In this document: piece by piece, positions 9,133-57,352 of the stretch
Layout of the letters: each line of letters starts with the position of its first letter
Numbering within the stretch: the first letter of the stretch is position 1
NCBI GenBank assembly: GCA_965203985.1
Contig: CBDBDS010000012.1
Span: 211,907 to 275,906 of the forward strand
Source of the DNA: Dehalococcoidia bacterium
GTDB taxonomy: Bacteria > Chloroflexota > Dehalococcoidia > Lucifugimonadales > UBA3495
Direction: 5' to 3'
Length of the DNA: 64,000 nucleotides
Notes under the pieces: generated by a model
What the model saw: the letters and a program-made list of their open reading frames with translations, nothing else
Databases searched by the model: none
What the model was told of the DNA's origin: nothing
Position numbers and translations under genes: made by a program

Positions 9133-9840
9133 TTATGCGCCTACTTCTACTTCGTAACGGGAGGGGAGAAAACTCTTGGGCAGCCATGGATATTCGCAGT
9201 CCACTGGTGGAATGATGGCGATATGCGCCCAGATGTGGCTGTCATCGGGAAGTTTGGCCTCGGGCCAGTCAATCCAACGACCGGGTTTGACCGGTGGGTA
9301 GCGTTGGCTCTCCCCGGTCAGGTCAATGACCACGCAAATGCCGATAGCGCCCGAATTAGCGGGAATCACCGCATCCTTGAGTGTCCTGATGTATTGTTTC
9401 GCTCTATCTTGATGAAACTTGCCTGTTTTGAGATCCACTGCAAGCAGCAGATTGCCGCCAACGTCCAGAACAGCCAAATCAAAGAAGTGGCCCGGCTGTC
9501 CATAGGAAACCCGCAAATTCAAACCCAACGCGTTGATCATCCCTTCCACACGCCGGCGTAAGACGTCAATTACAGACAGCCCGGTATCAACAACGTCTGC
9601 TTGGTAGCGCCAGCGCAACCCGGCCAACGCCGTTCCGAATATACCGAAGGCCAACAACGGTTCCTCGGCCATCCCTGCCCGTTCGCGTTCATCCCAGAGG
9701 ATTTCCAATCCGATAACGTTGTCATCGCGGTCGTAGTCCGCGATGAAATCGTAGGCGAATTCCCCGCTGGTTTCGTAATCGGCGTAGTCGGCGAAGTACA
9801 GATTGATGCCTTCGTCATCACGCGTTATTCGGGCTGGCAT
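9133..9840 (-). CDS. DUF2283-like N-terminal domain fused to a PD-(D/E)xK (YhcG-like) nuclease-fold domain
   Basis: The N-terminus (...DDEGINLYFAD...DYDRDDNVIGLEILWD) fits the DUF2283 pattern. The C-terminal FFDLAVLDVGGNLLLAVDLKTGKF...AKQYIRTL fits the D-x(n)-(D/E)-x-K...Q-x-x-Y nuclease motif. Confidence 0.6.
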   Translation of the reverse strand: MPARITRDDEGINLYFADYADYETSGEFAYDFIADYDRDDNVIGLEILWDERERAGMAEEPLLAFGIFGTALAGLRWRYQADVVDTGLSVIDVLRRRVEGMINALGLNLRVSYGQPGHFFDLAVLDVGGNLLLAVDLKTGKFHQDRAKQYIRTLKDAVIPANSGAIGICVVIDLTGESQRYPPVKPGRWIDWPEAKLPDDSHIWAHIAIIPPVDCEYPWLPKSFLPSRYEVEVGA

Positions 9841-15371: not shown

Positions 15372-15764
15372 ATGTCCCACTTCGCTCCATCATTCCAGAA
15401 ACCTCATGTCCACCGAGGCCACACGTTGTTCCGTTCGGCCTACCCCGCCAAAGACCGGCCCGCGTACATCACCCGCTACGTGTACGCCGACACCACGTTG
15501 TCCACCCACGGCGGGACTGCGGGCAAGGTCAGCGTCACCAGCGAGGAGCACACCCGCCTCCAGCAGATGGCCGAGTACCTCGAACGCTGCTGCAACGACC
15601 TTGACGCCGCCGGCTACGACGTCATCTCCATCACCCCCGTCATCAGCGGCCGCACCGCCTACACCCACACCGAGACCACCGACATCTACCCCGGCCACGG
15701 CTACAGCGTCACCGACGGCCTGGTCGTTACCGGCCGCCTCAAGTCCCTGGAGCCCAACCCATGA
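15372..15764 (+). CDS. Hypothetical small protein (start uncertain)
   Basis: Strong C/G third-position bias. The stop overlaps the ATG of the next gene (CCATGA). No family recognised. The alternative-frame 204-aa ORF looks like a low-complexity artefact. Confidence 0.55.
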   Translation: MSHFAPSFQKPHVHRGHTLFRSAYPAKDRPAYITRYVYADTTLSTHGGTAGKVSVTSEEHTRLQQMAEYLERCCNDLDAAGYDVISITPVISGRTAYTHTETTDIYPGHGYSVTDGLVVTGRLKSLEPNP

Positions 15765-16189
15765 CCCAATCCTCTCCCATCGAACCCTTCGACGAGCCGG
15801 CCGCAGCCATCGCCGACTATCGTCAGCAGGCCCGCGAGTTCCTGGCAAAAAGCCGTCAGTACCTGGCCGACGACGACCTGCACCAGGCATCCGAAAAAGG
15901 CTGGGGCGCCGCCGCGTGGATGGCCAAAGCCGTCGCCGATGCACAGGGCTGGGAATATAAAAGGCACGCCCAGTTCAACGTCGTAATGTATAGCGCCCAG
16001 GACTTCGCCGGCGATGCCAGATTAGACGGCCTCCGCGCTTTGGCCAGTGAACTGCACGGCTACTTGTACACCCGCAAGCTTCTTCTGCGCTCCGACGTGA
16101 TCAGTCGCGGGCTGGACCAGATGGGCGTCCTGTTGGACATCCTCGAACCCCTCACCGAAACCGACCGACACGCTGAAGGCGACCCATGA
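15761..16189 (+). CDS. PaREP1-family (HEPN superfamily) protein, tandem copy 1
   Basis: AREFLAKSRQYLADDDLHQASEKGWGAAAWMAKAVA...ELHGYLY matches my recollection of the archaeal PaREP1 signature (QASEKxWGAAA ... LHxNFY). Confidence 0.65.
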   Translation: MTQSSPIEPFDEPAAAIADYRQQAREFLAKSRQYLADDDLHQASEKGWGAAAWMAKAVADAQGWEYKRHAQFNVVMYSAQDFAGDARLDGLRALASELHGYLYTRKLLLRSDVISRGLDQMGVLLDILEPLTETDRHAEGDP

Positions 16190-16599
16190 CCCAATCCTCT
16201 CCCATCGAACCCTTCGACGTGCCGGCCACAGCCATCGCCGACTACCGTCAGCAGGCCCGCGAGTTCCTGGCAAAAAGCCGCCAGTACCTCGCCGAGGATG
16301 ACCTGCACCAGGCATCCGAAAAAGGCTGGGGCGCCGCCGCCTGGATGGCCAAGGCGGCTGCCGAGGCACAAGGTTGGCAGTACAAGAAGCACGATCAATT
16401 CAATGTAGTGCTGAACAATGCCCGTCTTTTGACTGGAGATGGACGACTGCCCGGGCTGCGTGGCATCGCCAACGACCTGCACACAAACTTTTACAAACGC
16501 AGGCTATTGCTGAACGCCGACGCCATTGCTGTAGACTTGGACCACATCTCTACCCTCCTCGACATCCTCGAACCCCTCACCGAAACCAGCACAACCTAG
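16186..16599 (+). CDS. PaREP1-family (HEPN superfamily) protein, tandem copy 2
   Basis: It has the same signature, including LHTNFY. The first ~150 nt and the last ~40 nt are nearly identical to copy 1 at nucleotide level, and the middle is diverged. Confidence 0.65.
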   Translation: MTQSSPIEPFDVPATAIADYRQQAREFLAKSRQYLAEDDLHQASEKGWGAAAWMAKAAAEAQGWQYKKHDQFNVVLNNARLLTGDGRLPGLRGIANDLHTNFYKRRLLLNADAIAVDLDHISTLLDILEPLTETSTT

Positions 16600-16608
16600 G
16601 AGATCCCC

Positions 16609-17637
16609 ATGACCAGCAGCGCAGAACGTCACGTCGAAACCGCCGACACCATCGAGGCCATCGAGGAGTGCTTCCGCCTCGGCTGGACTGACGGCCTCCC
16701 CGTCATCCCACCAGCCGATTACAAGGTCCGCGAGATGCTCTCCACCGCCGGCCTCACCGGCGAGGAGGAACTGCTCAACCTCGATATGCGCAGCCGCGTC
16801 ATCACCTCCGAGAACGCCGCCGCCAACGCGGTCATGGCCGGCTGCGAGGCCGAGTACTTCCCCGTGCTAGTCACCGCCCTGCGCACCCTCGAGGAAGAGC
16901 GCAACTTCGTCAACATGGCCGCTTCGTCCACCAGTTCGCCCAGTATCCTGATGGTGCTCAACGGCCCCATCCGCGAGCAGCTCGGCATCAACAGTCGTGA
17001 CGGCCTCTTCGGCCCCGGCTTCCGCGCCAACGCCAGCATCGGCCGCGCCGTCCGCCTCTGCTTCATGAACGGCTTCGACGCCTGGCCCGGCCAGCTCGAC
17101 CGCGGAACCCTGGGCACTCCGGCCAAGTACACCTTCTGCGTCGCCGAAAACGAGGAAACCTCCCCCTGGGAGCCGCTCCACGTCAGCCGCGGCTTCGACG
17201 CCTCCGACAGCGTGGTCACCGTCGCCGTCGCCTACAACCCGGTCAGCGTGCCGAACAGCTACGCCCACACCGGCCAGGCCATCCTCCTCTCCATCTGCGA
17301 CGCCCTCCGCTCCGCCGCCCTGGCCCATCGCTACCCCGCCCAGTGGGTCATCGTCATCGGACCCGAACACGCCCTGACCCTCCAGGGCGACGGCTGGACC
17401 CGCCGCGACATCCAGGACTTCCTCATTGAGAACAGCGGCCGCTCCCGTGCCGAACTCGTCCGCCTCGGTTCCAAGCAGGGCCCGGAACAACCCGGCGACG
17501 AAGAACTCATCATGCGCTGCGCCATCGACCCGAACGACATCCTCATCATGCACGGCGGCGGCACCGGCGGCCGCTACAGCGCCATCATCGACACCACCGG
17601 CTACCGCATCCGCACGCGCAAGATCGGCGGGGATTAG
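16609..17637 (+). CDS. Conserved hypothetical protein (342 aa), first gene of the selenoprotein-containing string
   Basis: AGGAG RBS and good coding bias. Motifs GWTDGLPVIPP and AANAVMAGCEAEYFPV. I cannot assign a family. Confidence 0.7.
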   Translation: MTSSAERHVETADTIEAIEECFRLGWTDGLPVIPPADYKVREMLSTAGLTGEEELLNLDMRSRVITSENAAANAVMAGCEAEYFPVLVTALRTLEEERNFVNMAASSTSSPSILMVLNGPIREQLGINSRDGLFGPGFRANASIGRAVRLCFMNGFDAWPGQLDRGTLGTPAKYTFCVAENEETSPWEPLHVSRGFDASDSVVTVAVAYNPVSVPNSYAHTGQAILLSICDALRSAALAHRYPAQWVIVIGPEHALTLQGDGWTRRDIQDFLIENSGRSRAELVRLGSKQGPEQPGDEELIMRCAIDPNDILIMHGGGTGGRYSAIIDTTGYRIRTRKIGGD

Positions 17638-17638
17638 C

Positions 17639-18460
17639 ATGACGACATCAGCCTTTCCAACAAGCCCGTTTCCAGGAATGAATCCTTACCTGGAAGACCC
17701 TGATCTTTGGCCGGGCATACACAAGACCTTTATCGCCGGTTTGCAGCGGCTCCTCAGTCCCCAATTGCGCCCCGATTACATGGTCCGGATTGAGGAACGG
17801 GTGTATGTATCCGACGAACCCAACGTCAGCGGGCAACGGCCCTTCCGCATACCCGACGTTATGATTGTGGACGAGGGTGGCGCCGCCGCCCGCGCCACCG
17901 CAATAGAGACGGAACCCCAACAAAACGAGGACGCCATCAACGTGGCGCTCCCTTCAGTTGAGCTGGAAAAAGACCGTTACCTGAAAATCATCAAGGTCAG
18001 CAATCGTGAGGTCGTTGCTGTAATCGAGCTGCTGTCGCCCTCCAATAAGACTGGCGATGGCCGCCAGGAATATCTGTCCAAGCGTGCCGAAGTGCAGTAC
18101 AGCCTTTCTCATTTGGTGGAAATCGACCTGCTGCGCTCCGGATCGCCCATGCCAGTCGTTGGAGACGTCCCCGGTGGCGACTACCGAATCCTGATTAGCA
18201 ATGCCCGGCTTGCGCCCGATGCGTCGCTGTACGTCTTTAGCATGCGCCAGCCGATACCCATCTTCGTCATGCCCCTGGCAGAAGGCTCCGAAGGCATAGC
18301 AATAGACCTGAAACCCGTCATCGACGAGGTGTACGTCCTCGGTTCCTACGACCGGGACATCGACTACTACCAGGACCCGGAACCGCCCCTCTCCGACCCC
18401 GACCGCGCCTGGATCGACCAACTCCTTCGCAATCAGGGGTTACGCAAACCGGCCCTTTGA
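17639..18460 (+). CDS. DUF4058 family protein (restriction-endonuclease-like fold)
   Basis: The N-terminus SPFPGMNPYLEDPDLWPGIHKTFI is the typical DUF4058 start. The ATG lies 1 nt after the upstream stop. Confidence 0.7.
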   Translation: MTTSAFPTSPFPGMNPYLEDPDLWPGIHKTFIAGLQRLLSPQLRPDYMVRIEERVYVSDEPNVSGQRPFRIPDVMIVDEGGAAARATAIETEPQQNEDAINVALPSVELEKDRYLKIIKVSNREVVAVIELLSPSNKTGDGRQEYLSKRAEVQYSLSHLVEIDLLRSGSPMPVVGDVPGGDYRILISNARLAPDASLYVFSMRQPIPIFVMPLAEGSEGIAIDLKPVIDEVYVLGSYDRDIDYYQDPEPPLSDPDRAWIDQLLRNQGLRKPAL

Positions 18461-18520
18461 CGGTACAATCCGCGCATATCGTTCATTCCGACCACACGCC
18501 CAAATCAACGGAGGTATCGC

Positions 18521-19081
18521 ATGACCACCGCCGAATCGAGCCGCCTCCGGCTCGTCAACCCCAAGGGCACCGAACTGCCCCAGACTGAGTTTCGCATGAA
18601 CGACCGCTCCGGCGGCTTGGCCGGCAAGCGCCTGGGCCTCATGGAGAACTCCAAGGCCAATGCCGACAAGCTCCTGATCGAGCTCGGCAATATCCTCAAC
18701 GAGCGCCACGGCTTCTCCGAGATCAAGTTCTACGACAAGGGCCACGCCAGCCTGCCCGCCAAGCAGGAAATGATCGACGAGATCTTGAGTGAGGTCGATT
18801 ACCTCATCACCGGGGTCGGAGATTGAGGGTCCTGCAGCTCGTGCAGTGTGCACGACGGAATCGACATGGAAAAGCGCGGCGTCCCCACCGCTGCCATCAT
18901 CACTCACGTCTTCCTCAACACGGCGCAGGCCATGACCCGCATGATGGGCGTGCCCGACTACCGCTACGTTGTCGCCCAGCATCCCCTGTCCAGCCTCACC
19001 GATGACGAGGTCAAGCAGCGTGCCGCCGACTTGGCCGACGAGGTGGAGTCCATCCTGACCGGCCAGCCTGTCGCCGCCTAG
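18521..19081 (+). CDS. UGSC-family / GrdB-C-terminal-like selenoprotein (predicted Sec at TGA 18824-18826)
   Basis: ORFs 18521-18826 and 18848-19081 share a frame and are separated only by one TGA. Read-through gives ...DYLITGVGD-U-GSCSSCSVHDGIDMEKRGVPTAAII... (UxxCxxC). Only the first ORF has an RBS (GGAGG). Confidence 0.75.
18839..18855 (+). promoter_or_regulatory. SECIS-like hairpin downstream of TGA 18824
   Basis: TCGTGCA-GTG-TGCACGA forms a 7-bp stem with a G-containing apical loop about 20 nt after the UGA. An alternative hairpin is CTGCA-GCTCG-TGCAG at 18832-18846. Confidence 0.45.
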
Positions 19082-19104: not shown

Positions 19105-19491
19105 GTGGCGTCTCCCGGCACGTCGCAACCGTCTCGCCTGCCCATCGACCCGGCCATCCGGCCCGGTCTGGCAGGCGAAACTCATTTGACCGTCGCCGCC
19201 GAACACCTCGCCCCGCATACGCCCAAGTTCAGCACCCCGGCCATGGTCATGCTCATGGAGCAGGCGTCGTACCAGGCGGTCCTGTCCCTGCTCCACCCTG
19301 CCCAGACCGTTGTCGGCTACGAGGTCAACGTCAAGCACCTCGCCCCGGCTGACGAGGGTTCAATCGTCACCGCCCGTTCCATCCTTACCGACGTGTCCGG
19401 CAACAAGCTCCGCTTCGAAGTCGAAGCCCACCACGGCGACGTCCTCCTCGGCACTGCTGAACATAAAATGGCCATAGTGCCAACCCAGTGA
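19105..19491 (+). CDS. Hotdog-fold thioesterase (FlK-like/4HBT-like)
   Basis: ...THLTVAAEHLAP...FSTPAMVMLMEQASYQAV...VGYEVNVKHLAPADEG fits the hotdog thioesterase pattern. GTG start with GGAG 6 nt upstream. Confidence 0.7.
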   Translation: MASPGTSQPSRLPIDPAIRPGLAGETHLTVAAEHLAPHTPKFSTPAMVMLMEQASYQAVLSLLHPAQTVVGYEVNVKHLAPADEGSIVTARSILTDVSGNKLRFEVEAHHGDVLLGTAEHKMAIVPTQ

Positions 19492-19577: not shown

Positions 19578-20144
19578 ATGTCCTGGATCCGAGAAACCGA
19601 CGTCGCCGTCCCCTCGGTGATCAGTTGCATGTCCATCAACCCCGACCTCATGGCGGCGGTCCAGAACCTTAACGCCAAGGCGACCTTCGGCTCGTCCGCC
19701 CTAACCCGCACCCAGGAGGAAGCAATCGCCACCGTGGTCTCCCTGGTCAACCGCTGCCGGTATTGAGCCGTCGCCCACGGAGGGTTCCTCCGTCAACACT
19801 CCGGCGACCCCGAGTACTCCAGCCACATCATCCACGACTACACCCTGGCAGACCTGGACCCGCAGACTCGCGCCATCCTCGATTACGCCGTCAAGCTCAC
19901 CCTGACCCCGGCAGCGATGACCGAAGCCGACATTAGTACCCTCCGCACTGTTGGCCTCACCGACGAGCAAATCCTGTCCACTGTCGCCATCACCTGCGTC
20001 TTCAACTTCATGAACCGCTTAGCCGATGGCCTCGGCGTCGAAATCCCCGAAGGCCGCGAGGCCATCATGGGCCAGTGGCTCTCCGACGCTGCCAAGCAAG
20101 CCCAGGACTGGCTCCTGTCCCCGGACGCCGTTGCCGTCTCCTGA
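19578..20144 (+). CDS. AhpD-like / carboxymuconolactone decarboxylase-family selenoprotein (predicted Sec at TGA 19764-19766)
   Basis: ORFs 19578-19766 and 19917-20144 share a frame, and the 150 nt between them are stop-free with coding bias. Read-through gives ...VSLVNRC-R-Y-U-AVAHGGFL..., which is the family motif N-x-C-x-Y-C-x-x-x-H with the second Cys replaced by the TGA codon. AGGAGG RBS at 19578 only. Confidence 0.8.
19770..19808 (+). promoter_or_regulatory. SECIS-like two-tier hairpin downstream of TGA 19764
   Basis: The outer stem is GTCGCC/GGCGAC (19770-75 / 19803-08). The inner stem is ACGGAGG-GTT-CCTCCGT (19777-19793). The apical loop G lies about 18 nt after the UGA. Confidence 0.55.
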
Positions 20145-53296: not shown

Positions 53297-54850
53297 TCAG
53301 TCGTTACCCGCCGTCCTCGGCTGTGGCTCGGCAGCTATCGGCGGTCGCGGGACGGCGGAGCGGTTGGACAGCGCGCGGTAGAAGGCAATCGCCGCTCCTG
53401 TGGCGAGCGCCGCGCCCAACATCAAAAACGCCCAACGCAGCCCGGCGACGAACGCCGTTGCCACCTCGGGATTAACCGCCTCAAGCTTGGGCTCCACTCC
53501 GTAGGTTGCCATGGTCGACACCACGACGGTGGTGGACACGGCGACGCTGACCACGTTCGCCGAGTTCCTGACTAATTGGGTCAGCGCCGAAACCACCCCA
53601 TATCGGCTACGGTCCACCACGCTGAGAATGCTGCTGCTGTTGGGGGAATTGAAAATTCCATTGCCCGAGCTCTGCATCATCATGGTGGCGATGACCAGCC
53701 AAACCGGGGACCGCTCCTGGAGCGCAAAGGGCCAGGACAAAAGCCCCCGCCGCGGTCAACGCCATGCCGCACACTGTCGGGACCCGCCATCCGAAACGAT
53801 CAGCCACGCGGCCGCTGAACGGCCCGATCAGCACCATGCACACCGCTGGCGGGATCATCATCAACCCTACCTGCTCCGGTGAATATTGCAGCACGCGCTG
53901 CAAGTAGAATGGCATCATGAAACGCGCAGCCGACGAACCGAAGAACGACAACCACGCCGCGGCAACCCCCAGCCCGAATATCTGGTTGGTGAACAGCCGC
54001 AGGTCCAGCATCGGCGCGCGGACTCTCAGCTCCCACCAGATGAAACCTGCCATCAGGACCGCCACCGCGACAACACCCACGATGACCGGGGTGGACAACC
54101 AGCCCAACCCGTTGCCATTGCCTACCACCAGCAAAAGAACGAGGAGTATCACTCCGGAAACCGCGGCACCGGTCCAATCGAATGAGGACGCTCCTTGCCC
54201 CCGGTGGTACTGACCCGCACCCGGACCTCGTTCCAGCAGGAGCCATGCGAGCACCAGCACCAGGCCGCCCGCCGGAACATTGATGTAAAACACCGATTGC
54301 CAGCCGAACCACGCCACGAGGAAGCCACCCACGGCCGGACCGGCGATCGCTCCCATTCCTACGACGCTGAGGTGTGTGCCCAGGGCCTTGCCACGCTCAG
54401 AGTCTGGGAAGGCCGCGATCATCATGCCCATGCCGCAGCCCTGGACCATGCCTGCTCCTACCCCCTTCAAGACGCGCATTACAACCAGCATCTCGAGGCT
54501 GGTAGAAAGCGCGGCGCCCAGCGAAGCGAAGACGAAGATTGCCGTGCCCGTCACGTAGACCCTGCGTCGACCAACGACATCACCCAGACGACCCATGGGC
54601 AGCAGGAGAACGCTGATTACCAACGCGTACGCGACCACCACCCACTGAACCGATTCCAACGACGCGTCGAAATGGGACTCGATGCCGGGCAGCGCCACGA
54701 GCACGCTGCCGTGATCGACCACCGAGAAAAATGTGCCGGCGGCTATGGTCCAGAAAGCCCACCATTTATAGGACTCGCTGGACGTTATGCGTTGGATCAA
54801 CTGCGTGACTGCCTGGGACCGGACCGTGCGGCGAATAGGATGACCATCAT
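53297..54850 (-). pseudogene. DHA2-type (14-TM, EmrB-like) MFS transporter with apparent frameshifts near both ends
   Basis: The MFS body is read in the frame of the 864-aa ORF. An RBS+ATG (AAGGAGTATGATG, 54850) is out of frame with that body. The C-terminal ~145 aa continue in another frame (ORF 53297-53740), with the shift near 53715-53750. Confidence 0.6.
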
Positions 54851-54874
54851 ACTCCTTTCGGAAACCTGACGCTG

Positions 54875-56150
54875 CTACTCCTTGGTGACCGGGGCCATCA
54901 GGCCAAACGCCGCACGCGGCCCAGCACAAACCCAGCATACCGCCGAAGCGCCGAGGCCGAGAACCGCAATCATTGCCATGGCCGTGGACGACGATGTCAC
55001 GTCTGAGAGGATTCCGACACCCAGGCTTGCCACGACCAGGAATCCCCGATCCAAAGCTCTGCAGGCTGGTCATGCGTCCGCGCAGGCTGTCCGGCGCCAA
55101 GGTCTGAATTAACGTGCCGCGGGCGGTCCGGAAAACTGCCTGGCTGAATGCCATAGCCGCGATGAAAAGGAATGCCAGTGCCATCCACTTGGAAAAAGCG
55201 AAAACCAGTAGCGTGGCGGAACTGCCGACGGCTGCTCCCAGCACCACCTTCCCCTTCGGGAATATGAACCCGAATGTGGCCATCATGAGCGCCGCCAGCA
55301 GGCCTCCGACGCCGGTCACTGCCAACAGATAGCCGCCCACGTCGGCGTCTCGATGCAACACCTCGGTAGTGAACACGGGAAACAGGAACCACGAAGGGTG
55401 CAGGATGATATTGGGAATGATCGACAAGATCATCAGTTGGAAGAAGGCTCGTTCCCCACTCCAAACGTAGCGCAGTCCTTCGATCATGTTGGACATCGCC
55501 GATCCGCGCTGGCGGGCATTTCCTGGCGTGTGGAACGGAGTGCGCAGCCTGAAGATCATCAGGACGTTCACCAGGTAGAGGCACGCTTCGATAGTGAAGT
55601 TCCAGAAGAACCCCAGAGTGAAAATCAGGATTCCGCCGACAAACGGGCCAACGGTTCGTGTACCCGTGATGGTCAACACGTTGGTGGCCAGCGCGTTCCC
55701 GAGCATCTCCCGGGGAACGGTGCCGGCGATCAACGCCTGGCGCATGGGCTGGACTGTAGAGTGACAGCAGCCCGCGAGTATCACGTACAGGTAGGCATGC
55801 CAAATCTGCACCTTTCCGGTCAGGATCAAAAGCGCGAAAGCCAAGGCCAGCACCGCCATCGCAGTCTGGAGGGCCATGACCAACTTGCGCCGGTCGAACC
55901 GGTCGCTCAGCACGCCGCCCCAGGGTCCAACCACCAGGCCGGGCAGCGTATTGATTCCGCCCACCGTGACCACCAACAATCCGGCTACGTTTGAGCCTTC
56001 GGATAACTCCCGGACCAGCCAGCCCACGCTCAGCAATTGCAGCCATTGAGCGTTGTTGGCAAAGAAATTGCCGAACCACAGGTACCGGAAGTCCCGGTAA
56101 GCAAGCCAGGCGTCCAGCGTGTGCAGGCGTGGCAACCGTGCGGTTCGCAA
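54875..56150 (-). pseudogene. MFS transporter (paralogue of 56162-57352) with a 1-nt frameshift near 55053-55058
   Basis: After ...RGRMTSLQ the paralogue-like sequence ALDRGFLVVASLGVGILSDVTSSSTAMAMIAVLGLG... continues in another frame to TAG 54875-77. The TTG start at 56150 is preceded by GAGGGA. Confidence 0.6.
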
Positions 56151-56161
56151 ACGGCTCCCTC

Positions 56162-57352
56162 TTAACGCAGCGCCCGCACTCGCCGCAGCGTGGCGAAACA
56201 CCCTAGCGTTACCGACAACCCCAGACAGCCAAGCGCCAGGATAGCCATCGATGCCGAAGTAAAATCAGCGAAAATGCCCACGACAACGCTCACACCGATC
56301 AGGAAAGAACGCTCGTAGGCCAACAAGGCCATGGTGCGCGCGCGGAAGCGGTCCGGCACGATGGTCAGTACCAGCGTCCCCTGCGTGGTGCGGAAGTAGG
56401 CCTGGAAGAACGACATCGCGCCCAGGACGGTGAACGCGGCCCAGGGCCACACGGAGAAGGCGAACAGGATGGTGGTCAGCGACGACAACGCCGCCGCGCC
56501 AAACAGGATGTAACCGCGCCGGAAGGGCAATCCCCAGGTGGCGATGGTCAGCGTGGAGATCAGGCCGCCCACTCCGGTGATCGCCAGCAGATAACCGCCC
56601 ATGTTGGCGTGGGCCTGCATGACTTCGACCGTAAACAGCGGCAGCAGGAACCAGACGGGGTGCAAAATGGTATTTGGAACCACCGACAGCACCGCAATTT
56701 CCAGGACTTCGCGTTGGTTCCGCCAAAGGTGAAGCAGGCCGTCCTTGATGTCTCCCAGCGGGGTGAAGCGCCGCTGTTCCTCCGCCGGTTCGGTGCCTGT
56801 GTATGGCGTCCGCATTGGCAGCAACATCAGCACCACGCCCGGGTACAGGGCGGCTTCCAGGGCGAAGTTCCAGAAATATCCCAGAGTGAATATCAGGATT
56901 CCGCCGAAGAATGGGCCGAAAATGCGGGTCCCGGTCACGGTGAGAGTGTTGATGGCGTAGGCGTTGACCAGCGCATCACGAGGGACAGTATTGGAAATCA
57001 GAACCTGCTGCAACGGTTGGGTGATGGCCAGGCAAGAACCGGAAATCAAAACGTACGCGTAGGCGTGCCAGGGCCGCACGTAATCAGTGGCGACCAGGAA
57101 AGCGAAGCCCAAAGCCAGCAATGCGCTCACGGACTGTAATGAGATTGCCAGCTTCCGACGATCCAGGCGGTCGCCCAGTACTCCGGTTATGGGGTTGATC
57201 AGGAGCCCGGGCAGGGTGTTGAGGGCGCTAACCGACAGTACCAATAAACCGCCGATGCCGGAGCCCGCAGACAAGTCCTTAACCAGCCACCCGATGCTCA
57301 GCAGTTGGAGCCATTGGCCCGTGAAACCACAAAAATTTGCCAGCCACAGCAA
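56162..57352 (-). CDS. MFS transporter (EntS/MFS_3-like); true start probably upstream at a non-ATG codon
   Basis: About 12 TM helices. Upstream in-frame sequence (...LRLPRLHTLDAWLAYRDFR) matches the N-terminus of the paralogue, but no ATG/GTG lies between the stop TAA and 57352. Confidence 0.7.
   Translation of the reverse strand: MLWLANFCGFTGQWLQLLSIGWLVKDLSAGSGIGGLLVLSVSALNTLPGLLINPITGVLGDRLDRRKLAISLQSVSALLALGFAFLVATDYVRPWHAYAYVLISGSCLAITQPLQQVLISNTVPRDALVNAYAINTLTVTGTRIFGPFFGGILIFTLGYFWNFALEAALYPGVVLMLLPMRTPYTGTEPAEEQRRFTPLGDIKDGLLHLWRNQREVLEIAVLSVVPNTILHPVWFLLPLFTVEVMQAHANMGGYLLAITGVGGLISTLTIATWGLPFRRGYILFGAAALSSLTTILFAFSVWPWAAFTVLGAMSFFQAYFRTTQGTLVLTIVPDRFRARTMALLAYERSFLIGVSVVVGIFADFTSASMAILALGCLGLSVTLGCFATLRRVRALR

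Follow-up and report, generated by a model that had tools for sequence, protein, structure and literature searches.

Background

UGSC-containing proteins are a selenoprotein family first predicted from marine metagenomes, for which 255 selenocysteine (Sec) and 21 cysteine sequences were reported in the GOS data (PMC2398784). Their function is listed as uncharacterised in reviews of 2022 and 2026 (PMC9312934, PMC13188914), and no functional study of the family was found in the literature. The present analysis concerns a 64-kb stretch of DNA from a Dehalococcoidia bacterium, referred to as the window, in which positions 18521-19081 very probably make up a single gene for a UGSC selenoprotein of 186 residues, with an in-frame UGA codon that would be read as Sec by way of a downstream hairpin. 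The selenoprotein as such is already known; its linkage to a partner protein family is a new lead, and a predicted flavodoxin-like fold and a possible link to selenoprotein B are likewise presented as leads worth following.

In the published model of the bacterial selenocysteine insertion sequence (bSECIS), the hairpin has an apical loop of 3-9 nt and an upper stem of 4-16 bp, and 16-37 nt separate the UGA from the loop (PMC13188914, Fig. 2). Among the first two nucleotides of the loop a G is expected, mostly as G[G/U], and the minimum folding energy (MFE) is -7.5 kcal/mol or lower (PMC13188914). Two other described groups are of use for comparison: selenoprotein B, with UxxCxxC given as the motif of GrdB (PMC13188914), and the AhpD-like selenoproteins, for which a C-x-x-U motif is listed (PMC2398784, PMC9312934).

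A single reading frame across the TGA codon

The frame opened by ATG 18521 runs through the TGA at 18824-18826 to the TAG at 19079-19081, as read directly from the sequence. The read-through product contains, around the Sec, ...EVDYLITGVGD-U-GSCSSCSVHDGIDMEKRGVPTAAIITHVF..., and the residues flanking U102 are ...LITGVGD-U-GSCSSCSVHDGIDMEK. A preliminary description of the stretch had noted two open reading frames (ORFs) in one frame, parted by a single TGA, with a GGAGG before the first and no ribosome-binding site before the second. All of this is borne out by direct inspection: the GGAGG lies 6 nt from the ATG, and no Shine-Dalgarno-like sequence is seen upstream of either candidate start of the second ORF, namely the GTG at 18848, where this ORF is listed, or the next in-frame ATG at 18866, which is used by public gene calls. 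The same description had counted three Cys in the 21 nt preceding the next ATG; this has to be corrected, as the 21 nt from the TGA to 18848 encode G-S-C-S-S-C-S, with two Cys, and the second ORF begins with GTG. The G+C content in this region of the window is 62%.

Public gene calls break the gene in two at the TGA; gene callers take UGA as a stop, and two fragments are therefore reported. Read literally, this annotation makes the TGA a genuine stop, placed between an N-terminal protein of 101 aa and a C-terminal one of either 71 aa (from ATG 18866) or 77 aa (from GTG 18848). Many database entries of 102 aa, ending in ...GVGD, are in keeping with it, and so is the fact that other genes of the window end normally in TGA. 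The lack of a ribosome-binding site before both candidate starts speaks against it, as do the homologues described in the following sections.

Membership in the UGSC family

Profile searches were run with U replaced by C. The product of the complete gene matches the Pfam family PF24696 (UGSC) with an E-value of 1.9e-57 and 194.6 bits (cut-off 25), residues 11-180 being aligned to positions 2-171 of the 172 of the profile, and the NCBIfam model NF041046, "UGSC family (seleno)protein", with 154.9 bits (curated cut-off 125). The assignment to the UGSC family of marine metagenomes, made in the preliminary description, is thus confirmed by two scores above curated cut-offs. More than 2100 members of the family were collected by profile search, some of which, of the Cys type, are named "UGSC family (seleno)protein" by NCBI.

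The closest database relatives are 102-aa entries ending in ...ITGVGD, accompanied by separate C-terminal fragments. The remoter ones are full-length proteins of 180-196 aa, in which GDCGSCS is aligned to GD-U-GSCS. The Cys homologues are, each of them, one ORF that aligns from end to end, with a Cys exactly at the position of the TGA codon; this is difficult to reconcile with a genuine stop. Across 38 aligned UGSC sequences, D101, C102, G103, S104 and C105 are invariant. Judging from the DNA, which continues in frame, the 102-aa entries are truncations made by gene callers. Two checks proposed in the preliminary description, whether homologues end at the TGA or exist as two genes, and whether a Cys or Sec is aligned with it, can therefore be answered: the frame is open past the TGA in the relatives, and the aligned residue is Cys in the full-length homologues.

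On sequence grounds, the window gene is a member of the already known UGSC family and differs from it in nothing essential. It shares with the family the full-length domain match, the U-G-S-C motif, the existence of Cys homologues and, downstream of the UGA, a hairpin of the SECIS type. UGSC proteins are mostly found in their Sec form, in environmental bacteria. The clade of the window differs by an additional Cys108 and His111 after the motif, the codons of which form part of the hairpin stem.

The TGA as a probable sense codon

Loci containing UGSC genes were fetched from genome and metagenome assemblies (designated below by L and a number, database proteins by P and a number). At the codon corresponding to U102, 76 of these genes have TGA and 15 have TGC. 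Genes of the TGA type belong to Chloroflexota/Dehalococcoidia, with one from Methylomirabilota and one from Acidobacteriota, and those of the TGC type to Actinomycetota and one Dormiibacterota. In all 76 TGA genes the frame stays open past the TGA, with no instance of the two halves being separated or lying in different frames.

A comparison with 12 relatives covered the 75 codons downstream of the TGA. Differences at codon positions 1, 2 and 3 amount to 34, 17 and 271, with 245 synonymous codon changes against 44 non-synonymous ones; the corresponding figures by codon position for the part before the TGA, in the same 12 relatives, are 134, 88 and 336. According to these counts, both halves are under purifying selection, which is stronger downstream of the TGA than upstream. 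The 7 to 13 codons separating the TGA from the candidate starts are included in the selected sequence, and they hold the invariant G103, S104 and C105, located before any possible restart codon. A genuine stop, which would leave these codons untranslated, is hard to maintain in the face of such conservation, of the constant association of the two halves and of the undivided Cys homologues, and is considered very improbable.

One base change is enough to make a TGA from a Cys codon (TGC or TGT), and the assembly is of metagenome type, so that a pseudogene, or a sequencing or assembly error, might also be envisaged. This explanation is effectively refuted, since dozens of independent assemblies, covering several phyla, yield 76 genes with the same TGA, and the downstream half is more constrained than the upstream one; its probability is practically negligible.

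Some uncultured bacteria reassign UGA. The codon could also be read as Trp, Cys or Gly, be it through a suppressor tRNA, near-cognate decoding or reassignment of the code, and no Sec would be involved. However, TGA is the ordinary stop of 11 of the 35 window genes supported by Pfam matches; recoding at this position is therefore site-specific, and not the consequence of a reassigned code. The remaining variants of this explanation are taken up below, together with the evidence for Sec use. The stop codons of the same 35 genes are 18 TAG, 11 TGA and 6 TAA, TAG being the commonest, in a window of 62% G+C.

A SECIS-type hairpin downstream of the TGA

The UGA is followed by a hairpin (Table 1) composed of codons S107-C108-S109-V110-H111-D112, with the first loop G 20 nt after the A of the UGA, 19 nt lying between them. 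The preliminary description had proposed a 7-bp hairpin with a GUG loop, about 20 nt past the UGA, as compatible with a bacterial SECIS. This proposal holds well: for loop (GUG), stem (7 bp), distance (19 nt) and predicted folding energy (-8.9 kcal/mol), the element falls within all the limits of the bSECIS model quoted in the Background. Like the consensus bSECIS, it is a hairpin within the coding region after the UGA, with a 3-nt loop beginning with G-U and a 7-bp upper stem. The putative element of the window is a minimal one, its loop of 3 nt being at the lower limit of the model.

Conservation of the hairpin was evaluated by comparison with relatives. In an alignment of 19 diverse Sec-type sequences (A3), 91% of the cells pair, and G23 and U24 of the loop do not vary. 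Compensatory changes are seen at three stem pairs, one from C-G to U-A in L073, and two, from U-A to G-C and from G-C to C-G, in L065, a Methylomirabilota gene whose peptide at the hairpin, SAASVAD, is unlike that of the window. The observed covariation was matched by none of 500 shuffles, and pairing is abolished by shifting the partner strand. All five inner pairs are kept in 35 of 39 distinct Sec sequences, as compared with 0 of 15 Cys forms. The loop is GU[G/U/A] in every Sec form, and CGG or CCG in the Cys forms. Within the stem, synonymous sites are frozen, whereas the Gly and Ser codons just upstream vary freely.

In the stem, the codon of Cys108 (UGC) is paired to that of His111 (CAC), and neither residue is found in the Cys forms (CGSCSASAVAD). 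UxxCxxC is hence a feature of the clade, rather than the motif of the family, because its last Cys belongs, with His111, to residues whose codons form the SECIS stem. This provides a case in which a SECIS hairpin dictates protein sequence, Cys108 and His111 being present in Sec forms as stem partners.

Probable selenocysteine use in the window and in relatives

The window was screened for in-frame TGA codons flanked on both sides by sequence of coding-like composition, as judged from the G+C content of codon positions, and only two genes interrupted in this way look real: the UGSC gene and an AhpD-like gene, located two genes after it, 0.7 kb downstream. The product of the AhpD-like gene matches Pfam PF02627 with an E-value of 9.9e-11 (U replaced by C), and contains the motif C-R-Y-U-x3-H (...SLVNRCRY-U-AVAHGG...). 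The CMD match and the C-x-x-U-x3-H active-site motif are both common to AhpD-like selenoproteins, and no difference from them was noted. The gene is cut by public gene calls into ORFs of 62 and 96 aa. Its TGA is kept in 49 genes and its hairpin is conserved in all TGA forms, with a compensated stem, CACGGAAA-GGC-UUUCCGUG, in L060. What is new for this gene is its conserved place two genes after UGSC, observed in the Dehalococcoidia clade of the window only. A universal UGSC/AhpD-like pair was considered and rejected, as synteny is confined to this close clade.

A tRNA-Sec gene with anticodon TCA was identified by ARAGORN at positions 9579-9675 (minus strand) of L073, a contig of a Chloroflexota metagenome-assembled genome, 2.4 kb from a TGA-type UGSC gene. 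No selA, selB or selD was found in its flanks; one neighbour is a class V aminotransferase. A tblastn search of all fetched loci with an E. coli SelD sequence gave no match. The AhpD-like gene and the L073 tRNA-Sec provide good, if indirect, support for the use of Sec in the lineage.

These data also bear on the insertion of a standard amino acid at the UGA, with which the failure to see sel genes in the 64-kb window would be consistent. Both in-frame TGA codons fall at redox Cys sites of known selenoprotein families, in U-x-x-C (UGSC) and C-x-x-U (AhpD-like) contexts. Each is followed, at bSECIS spacing, by a conserved hairpin with a G-U loop that is absent in Cys forms, and the TGA-type UGSC gene of L073 is linked to a tRNA-Sec. 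Insertion of Trp, Cys or Gly appears hardly likely in view of these features, and Sec remains by far the preferred residue at position 102.

A conserved partner protein

ORFs within 5 kb of UGSC were clustered across 34 diverse loci, and a protein of about 345 aa was found in all 34. In 86 of 89 sources its signature, N-A-x-M-A-G-C, occurs on the same strand as the UGSC codon, 0.47-6.3 kb away. This partner gene immediately precedes UGSC in Chloroflexota, and immediately follows it in Actinomycetota, Dormiibacterota, Methylomirabilota and Acidobacteriota. The family comprises 4364 representative clusters at E <= 0.001; profile and sequence searches returned no Pfam or NCBIfam model and no PDB sequence relative. 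Its conserved residues include two near-invariant Cys (C79 and C177) and several invariant Arg, Asn and Glu.

Fusions of UGSC to the partner were detected in about 30 of the best 150 of the 4364 family representatives. In 8 of these 150 a complete UGSC domain is found at the N-terminus (e.g. P0329, P0368). About 18 others begin with the part of UGSC that follows the U, the gene call starting after the TGA, and 4 have at their end a UGSC domain that breaks off at position 98 of the profile, that is, at the TGA. On the basis of these end points, the truncated entries (P0315-P0432, P0291, P0298, P0335, P0384) are taken to be Sec-type UGSC-partner fusions, cut at the TGA by gene callers. The existence of fusions in both orders and the nearly universal adjacency over five phyla are strong evidence that UGSC and the partner function together, as far as this can be judged from gene arrangement. 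A fusion of UGSC with a domain called Unknown_1, which may or may not be the partner, is mentioned in PMC2398784.

A confident AlphaFold2 (AF2) model of the partner was obtained, with pLDDT 94.6 and pTM 0.92, for which no real structural match was found. The best fold matches are cyclic amide hydrolases of the Toblerone fold, with a TM-score of only about 0.2, and this fold was not assigned. The partner was also considered as the missing N-terminal part of GrdB/PrdB, and this was rejected, since hhalign gave an E-value of 0.64 to PrdB, and profile searches found no matches to GrdB, PrdA or GrdE.

Other arrangements of the two domains were observed. A NifU-like domain (PF01106) is fused to UGSC in P0032, P0037 and P0306, the last in the order NifU-like, UGSC, partner; such fusions give a hint of a connection with Fe-S or thiol chemistry. 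P0289 is a single protein of 741 aa with two partner domains. Five loci of Dehalococcoidia (L074, L077, L080, L082 and L085) contain two Sec-type UGSC paralogues about 8.6 kb apart, one reading UGSCSQCSLHD at the motif and the other UGSCSTCCMHD. The same loci have three paralogues of the partner, two of which are adjacent in tandem.

Predicted fold and comparison with selenoprotein B

The structure was modelled by AF2 on a Cys homologue, P0024 (38% identical, motif CGSCSACSIH), by using an alignment of 46 sequences. The model (pLDDT 88.8) consists of five consecutive beta-alpha units, with the Cys/Sec position immediately behind strand 3, in the opening turn of helix 3. The two halves of the gene are thus predicted to make one domain, with strand 3 before the TGA codon and helix 3 after it, which again argues against a genuine stop. 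When the model was compared with PDB folds, the best matches were to PurE, the B12-binding domain and lumazine synthase, with TM-scores up to 0.45, all of them generic flavodoxin- or Rossmann-like folds; none of the 50 listed matches was described as a thioredoxin, and a PDB sequence search with the UGSC profile gave no match. A likely thioredoxin (Trx)-like fold had been suggested for UGSC in 2008 (PMC2398784); it finds no support in the topology of the model or in its PDB matches, and the fold is predicted to be flavodoxin-like alpha/beta. In the model, Sec102 and Cys105 would be placed at the N-terminus of helix 3, as in a redox-active selenol/thiol pair that can form a selenenylsulfide.

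The relationship to selenoprotein B was analyzed at the level of profiles and of the local motif. PF07355 was not reported for the UGSC product at E <= 1, and TIGR01917 gave an E-value of 0.083 and 11.8 bits, far from its cut-off of 602. Among 38 UGSC members, the commonest non-self matches, all below threshold, were GrdF (14), PrdB (7) and GrdB (4), with a best E-value of 8.8e-4. PrdB sequences were retrieved by a sequence query, to which the matches, which contain PF07355, are 61-89% identical. Aligned by hhalign, residues 91-145 of UGSC match residues 143-190 of PrdB over 48 columns, with an E-value of 0.0041 and a probability of only 8%. The register places GDCGSCS on AGCGTCH and E-x2-GVPT on E-x2-GIPT, and the length from the U to the C-terminus is 84 aa in UGSC and 89 in PrdB.

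The two proteins share a local pattern, consisting of a beta-strand, G, U, G, S/T, C and about 12 helical residues, followed by E-x2-G-[IV]-P-[TS] and another beta-strand. They differ in that no significant similarity is found over the whole protein, and UGSC is without the N-terminal part of PrdB/GrdB. The preliminary description had compared the window motif to the UxxCxxC of selenoprotein B. The window does read U-G-S-C-S-S-C, but the third Cys is missing in the Cys forms (C-G-S-C-S-A-S/A) and in the Sec form of L065 (U-G-S-C-S-A-A), and the similarity to selenoprotein B stays below threshold; PrdB itself has U-G-T-C only. From the aligned sequences, the motif of the UGSC family is U/C-G-S-C. 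None of the genes called within 10 kb on either side, or elsewhere in the window, encodes a GrdE/PrdA pyruvoyl proprotein, GrdA, GrdC/D or PrdC. A remote relationship, or a convergence limited to the Sec loop, is plausible from these comparisons, without membership of UGSC in GrdB/PrdB.

In several database PrdB sequences (P0167, P0216, P0220 and others, alignment A7) the Sec position is occupied by W, R or G. Such entries might be quoted in favour of a standard amino acid at UGA, but they are presumably artefacts of the way in which TGA was translated, probably by translation table.

Proposed mechanism and its weighing

Ribosomes would start at ATG 18521, behind the GGAGG, and reach the UGA at 18824-18826, where Sec would be inserted instead of termination, translation continuing to the TAG at 19079. 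By analogy with the established bacterial mechanism, the hairpin at 18839-18855 would act as a SECIS, recruiting the SelB-GTP-Sec-tRNA(Sec) complex to the A site. U102 and C105 may then form a redox-active selenol/thiol pair, serving the partner as reductant or as attacking nucleophile; this role is suggested because of the geometry of the motif, the analogy with UxxC/CxxU selenoproteins and the weak resemblance to GrdB/PrdB. UGSC probably provides the redox or nucleophile function in an enzyme of two components, of which the 342-aa protein would be the other.

A few points weigh against the assignment of 18521-19081 as a Sec-encoding gene. The folding energy of the hairpin is no better than that of shuffled sequences (z = 0.12 and 0.35, in the 62% G+C region); energy is therefore uninformative, and the support for the hairpin rests on the comparison with relatives. 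There, conservation of amino acids could explain part of the hairpin conservation in the close clade, and the compensatory changes come from two distant sequences only. Rfam gave no relevant match, either for the window at the gathering threshold or for the site at E <= 10, and no Rfam family for bacterial SECIS elements was reported in either scan. Within the 64-kb window, selA, selB, selD and tRNA-Sec were not found by a tRNA scan, which returned no tRNA at all, and by a Pfam scan of about 35 ORFs. The structural model was made on the 38%-identical Cys homologue P0024 and not on the window protein, and the selenium content and any catalytic activity of the UGSC product are predictions. In spite of these points, the data on family membership, Sec/Cys pairing, hairpin covariation and selection after the UGA make a UGSC selenoprotein gene very probable.

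A broader proposal is advanced tentatively, and with considerable doubt. UGSC and the partner might be a widespread, undescribed two-component enzyme, sometimes in one chain, selenium- or cysteine-dependent according to lineage. UGSC would give a GrdB/PrdB-like Sec-x-x-Cys loop, acting as nucleophile or in redox, and the partner would bind the substrate. The pair would then correspond in function, remotely, to the GrdE/GrdB and PrdA/PrdB reductases, and would operate in heterotrophs that are aerobic or marine (such as SAR202-type Dehalococcoidia) and in Actinomycetota.

For annotation, the results call for the repair of the UGSC and AhpD-like genes, which are split in public gene calls. The same truncation is present in many database entries of UGSC and of UGSC-partner fusions, and keeps from view a selenoprotein family that ranks among the most abundant in the environment. 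UGSC has been without an assigned function for about twenty years; its linkage and fusion with a single unnamed family provides a testable handle, and further ones are offered by the weak but register-exact likeness to the Sec loop of GrdB/PrdB and by the predicted flavodoxin-like fold.

Neighbourhood and other features of the window

The coordinates of the features discussed are reported in Table 1, in their order along the window.

Table 1. Features of the UGSC locus; positions refer to the 64-kb window.
Feature	Positions	Strand	Details
Partner gene, no described family	16609-17637	+	342 aa; motifs DGLP, NAxMAGC, FGPGxRANA, CxAExE invariant or near-invariant
DUF4058 gene between partner and UGSC	17678-18460	+	Pfam PF13267, E 1.9e-78; public gene call
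Shine-Dalgarno GGAGG of the UGSC gene	18510-18514	+	read directly; 6-nt spacer to ATG 18521
UGSC-family selenoprotein gene, complete (predicted)	18521-19081	+	186 codons; Sec = codon 102; stop TAG 19079-19081
UGA, predicted to be decoded as Sec (U102), start of the U-G-S-C motif	18824-18826	+	TGA/TGC comparison across loci
SECIS-type hairpin in the UGSC coding sequence	18839-18855	+	7-bp stem, UCGUGCA 18839-18845/UGCACGA 18849-18855; loop GUG 18846-18848
FlK/4HBT-type thioesterase gene, directly downstream of UGSC	19105-19491	+	Pfam PF22636, E 2.9e-25
AhpD-like/CMD selenoprotein gene (predicted)	19578-20144	+	188 aa; in-frame TGA 19764-19766; stop TGA 20142-20144
SECIS-type hairpin of the AhpD-like gene	19777-19793	+	ACGGAGG/CCUCCGU; loop GUU 19784-19786; 17 nt after the UGA

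The number of DUF4058 genes is variable: the window has one, and 0 to 6 copies are found at the same spot in relatives (1 to 6 in part of the Dehalococcoidia clade), L003 having six. Over L001-L088 the distance between partner and UGSC falls into classes of about 1.2, 2.0, 2.8, 3.6, 4.6, 5.4-5.9 and 6.3 kb, corresponding to 0-6 DUF4058 copies. The FlK thioesterase gene occupies an equal position in 53 fetched loci, all of them from the close Dehalococcoidia clade. Other recurrent neighbours are short-chain dehydrogenases/reductases (SDRs, in 20 of 34 loci), Amidohydro_2 proteins, luciferase-like oxidoreductases and Zn-dependent alcohol dehydrogenases. By their family assignments, the neighbours, including the thioesterase, point to the catabolism of small molecules, without identifying the substrate.

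Two small ORFs in tandem (15761-16189 and 16186-16599, plus strand) are located just upstream of the partner gene. The tandem ORFs found at this place in relatives match PaREP1 (PF05942) and are present in 1-3 copies (e.g. L001, 8389-8820; L002, 3985-5419), with genes of the Uma2 family (PF05685) also scattered in the vicinity. PaREP1 and Uma2 genes look like multi-copy families, which are possibly selfish.

Elsewhere, the window contains genes for luciferase-like oxidoreductases, family III CoA transferases, SDRs and major facilitator superfamily (MFS) transporters, a content which we take to fit the repertoire of SAR202-type Dehalococcoidia. An ORF of 864 aa at 53607-56201 (minus strand) contains two MFS domains, and its start is overlapped by a third MFS gene at 56162-57352, on the same strand. 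This region is either a tandem triplication, or two genes read as one ORF.

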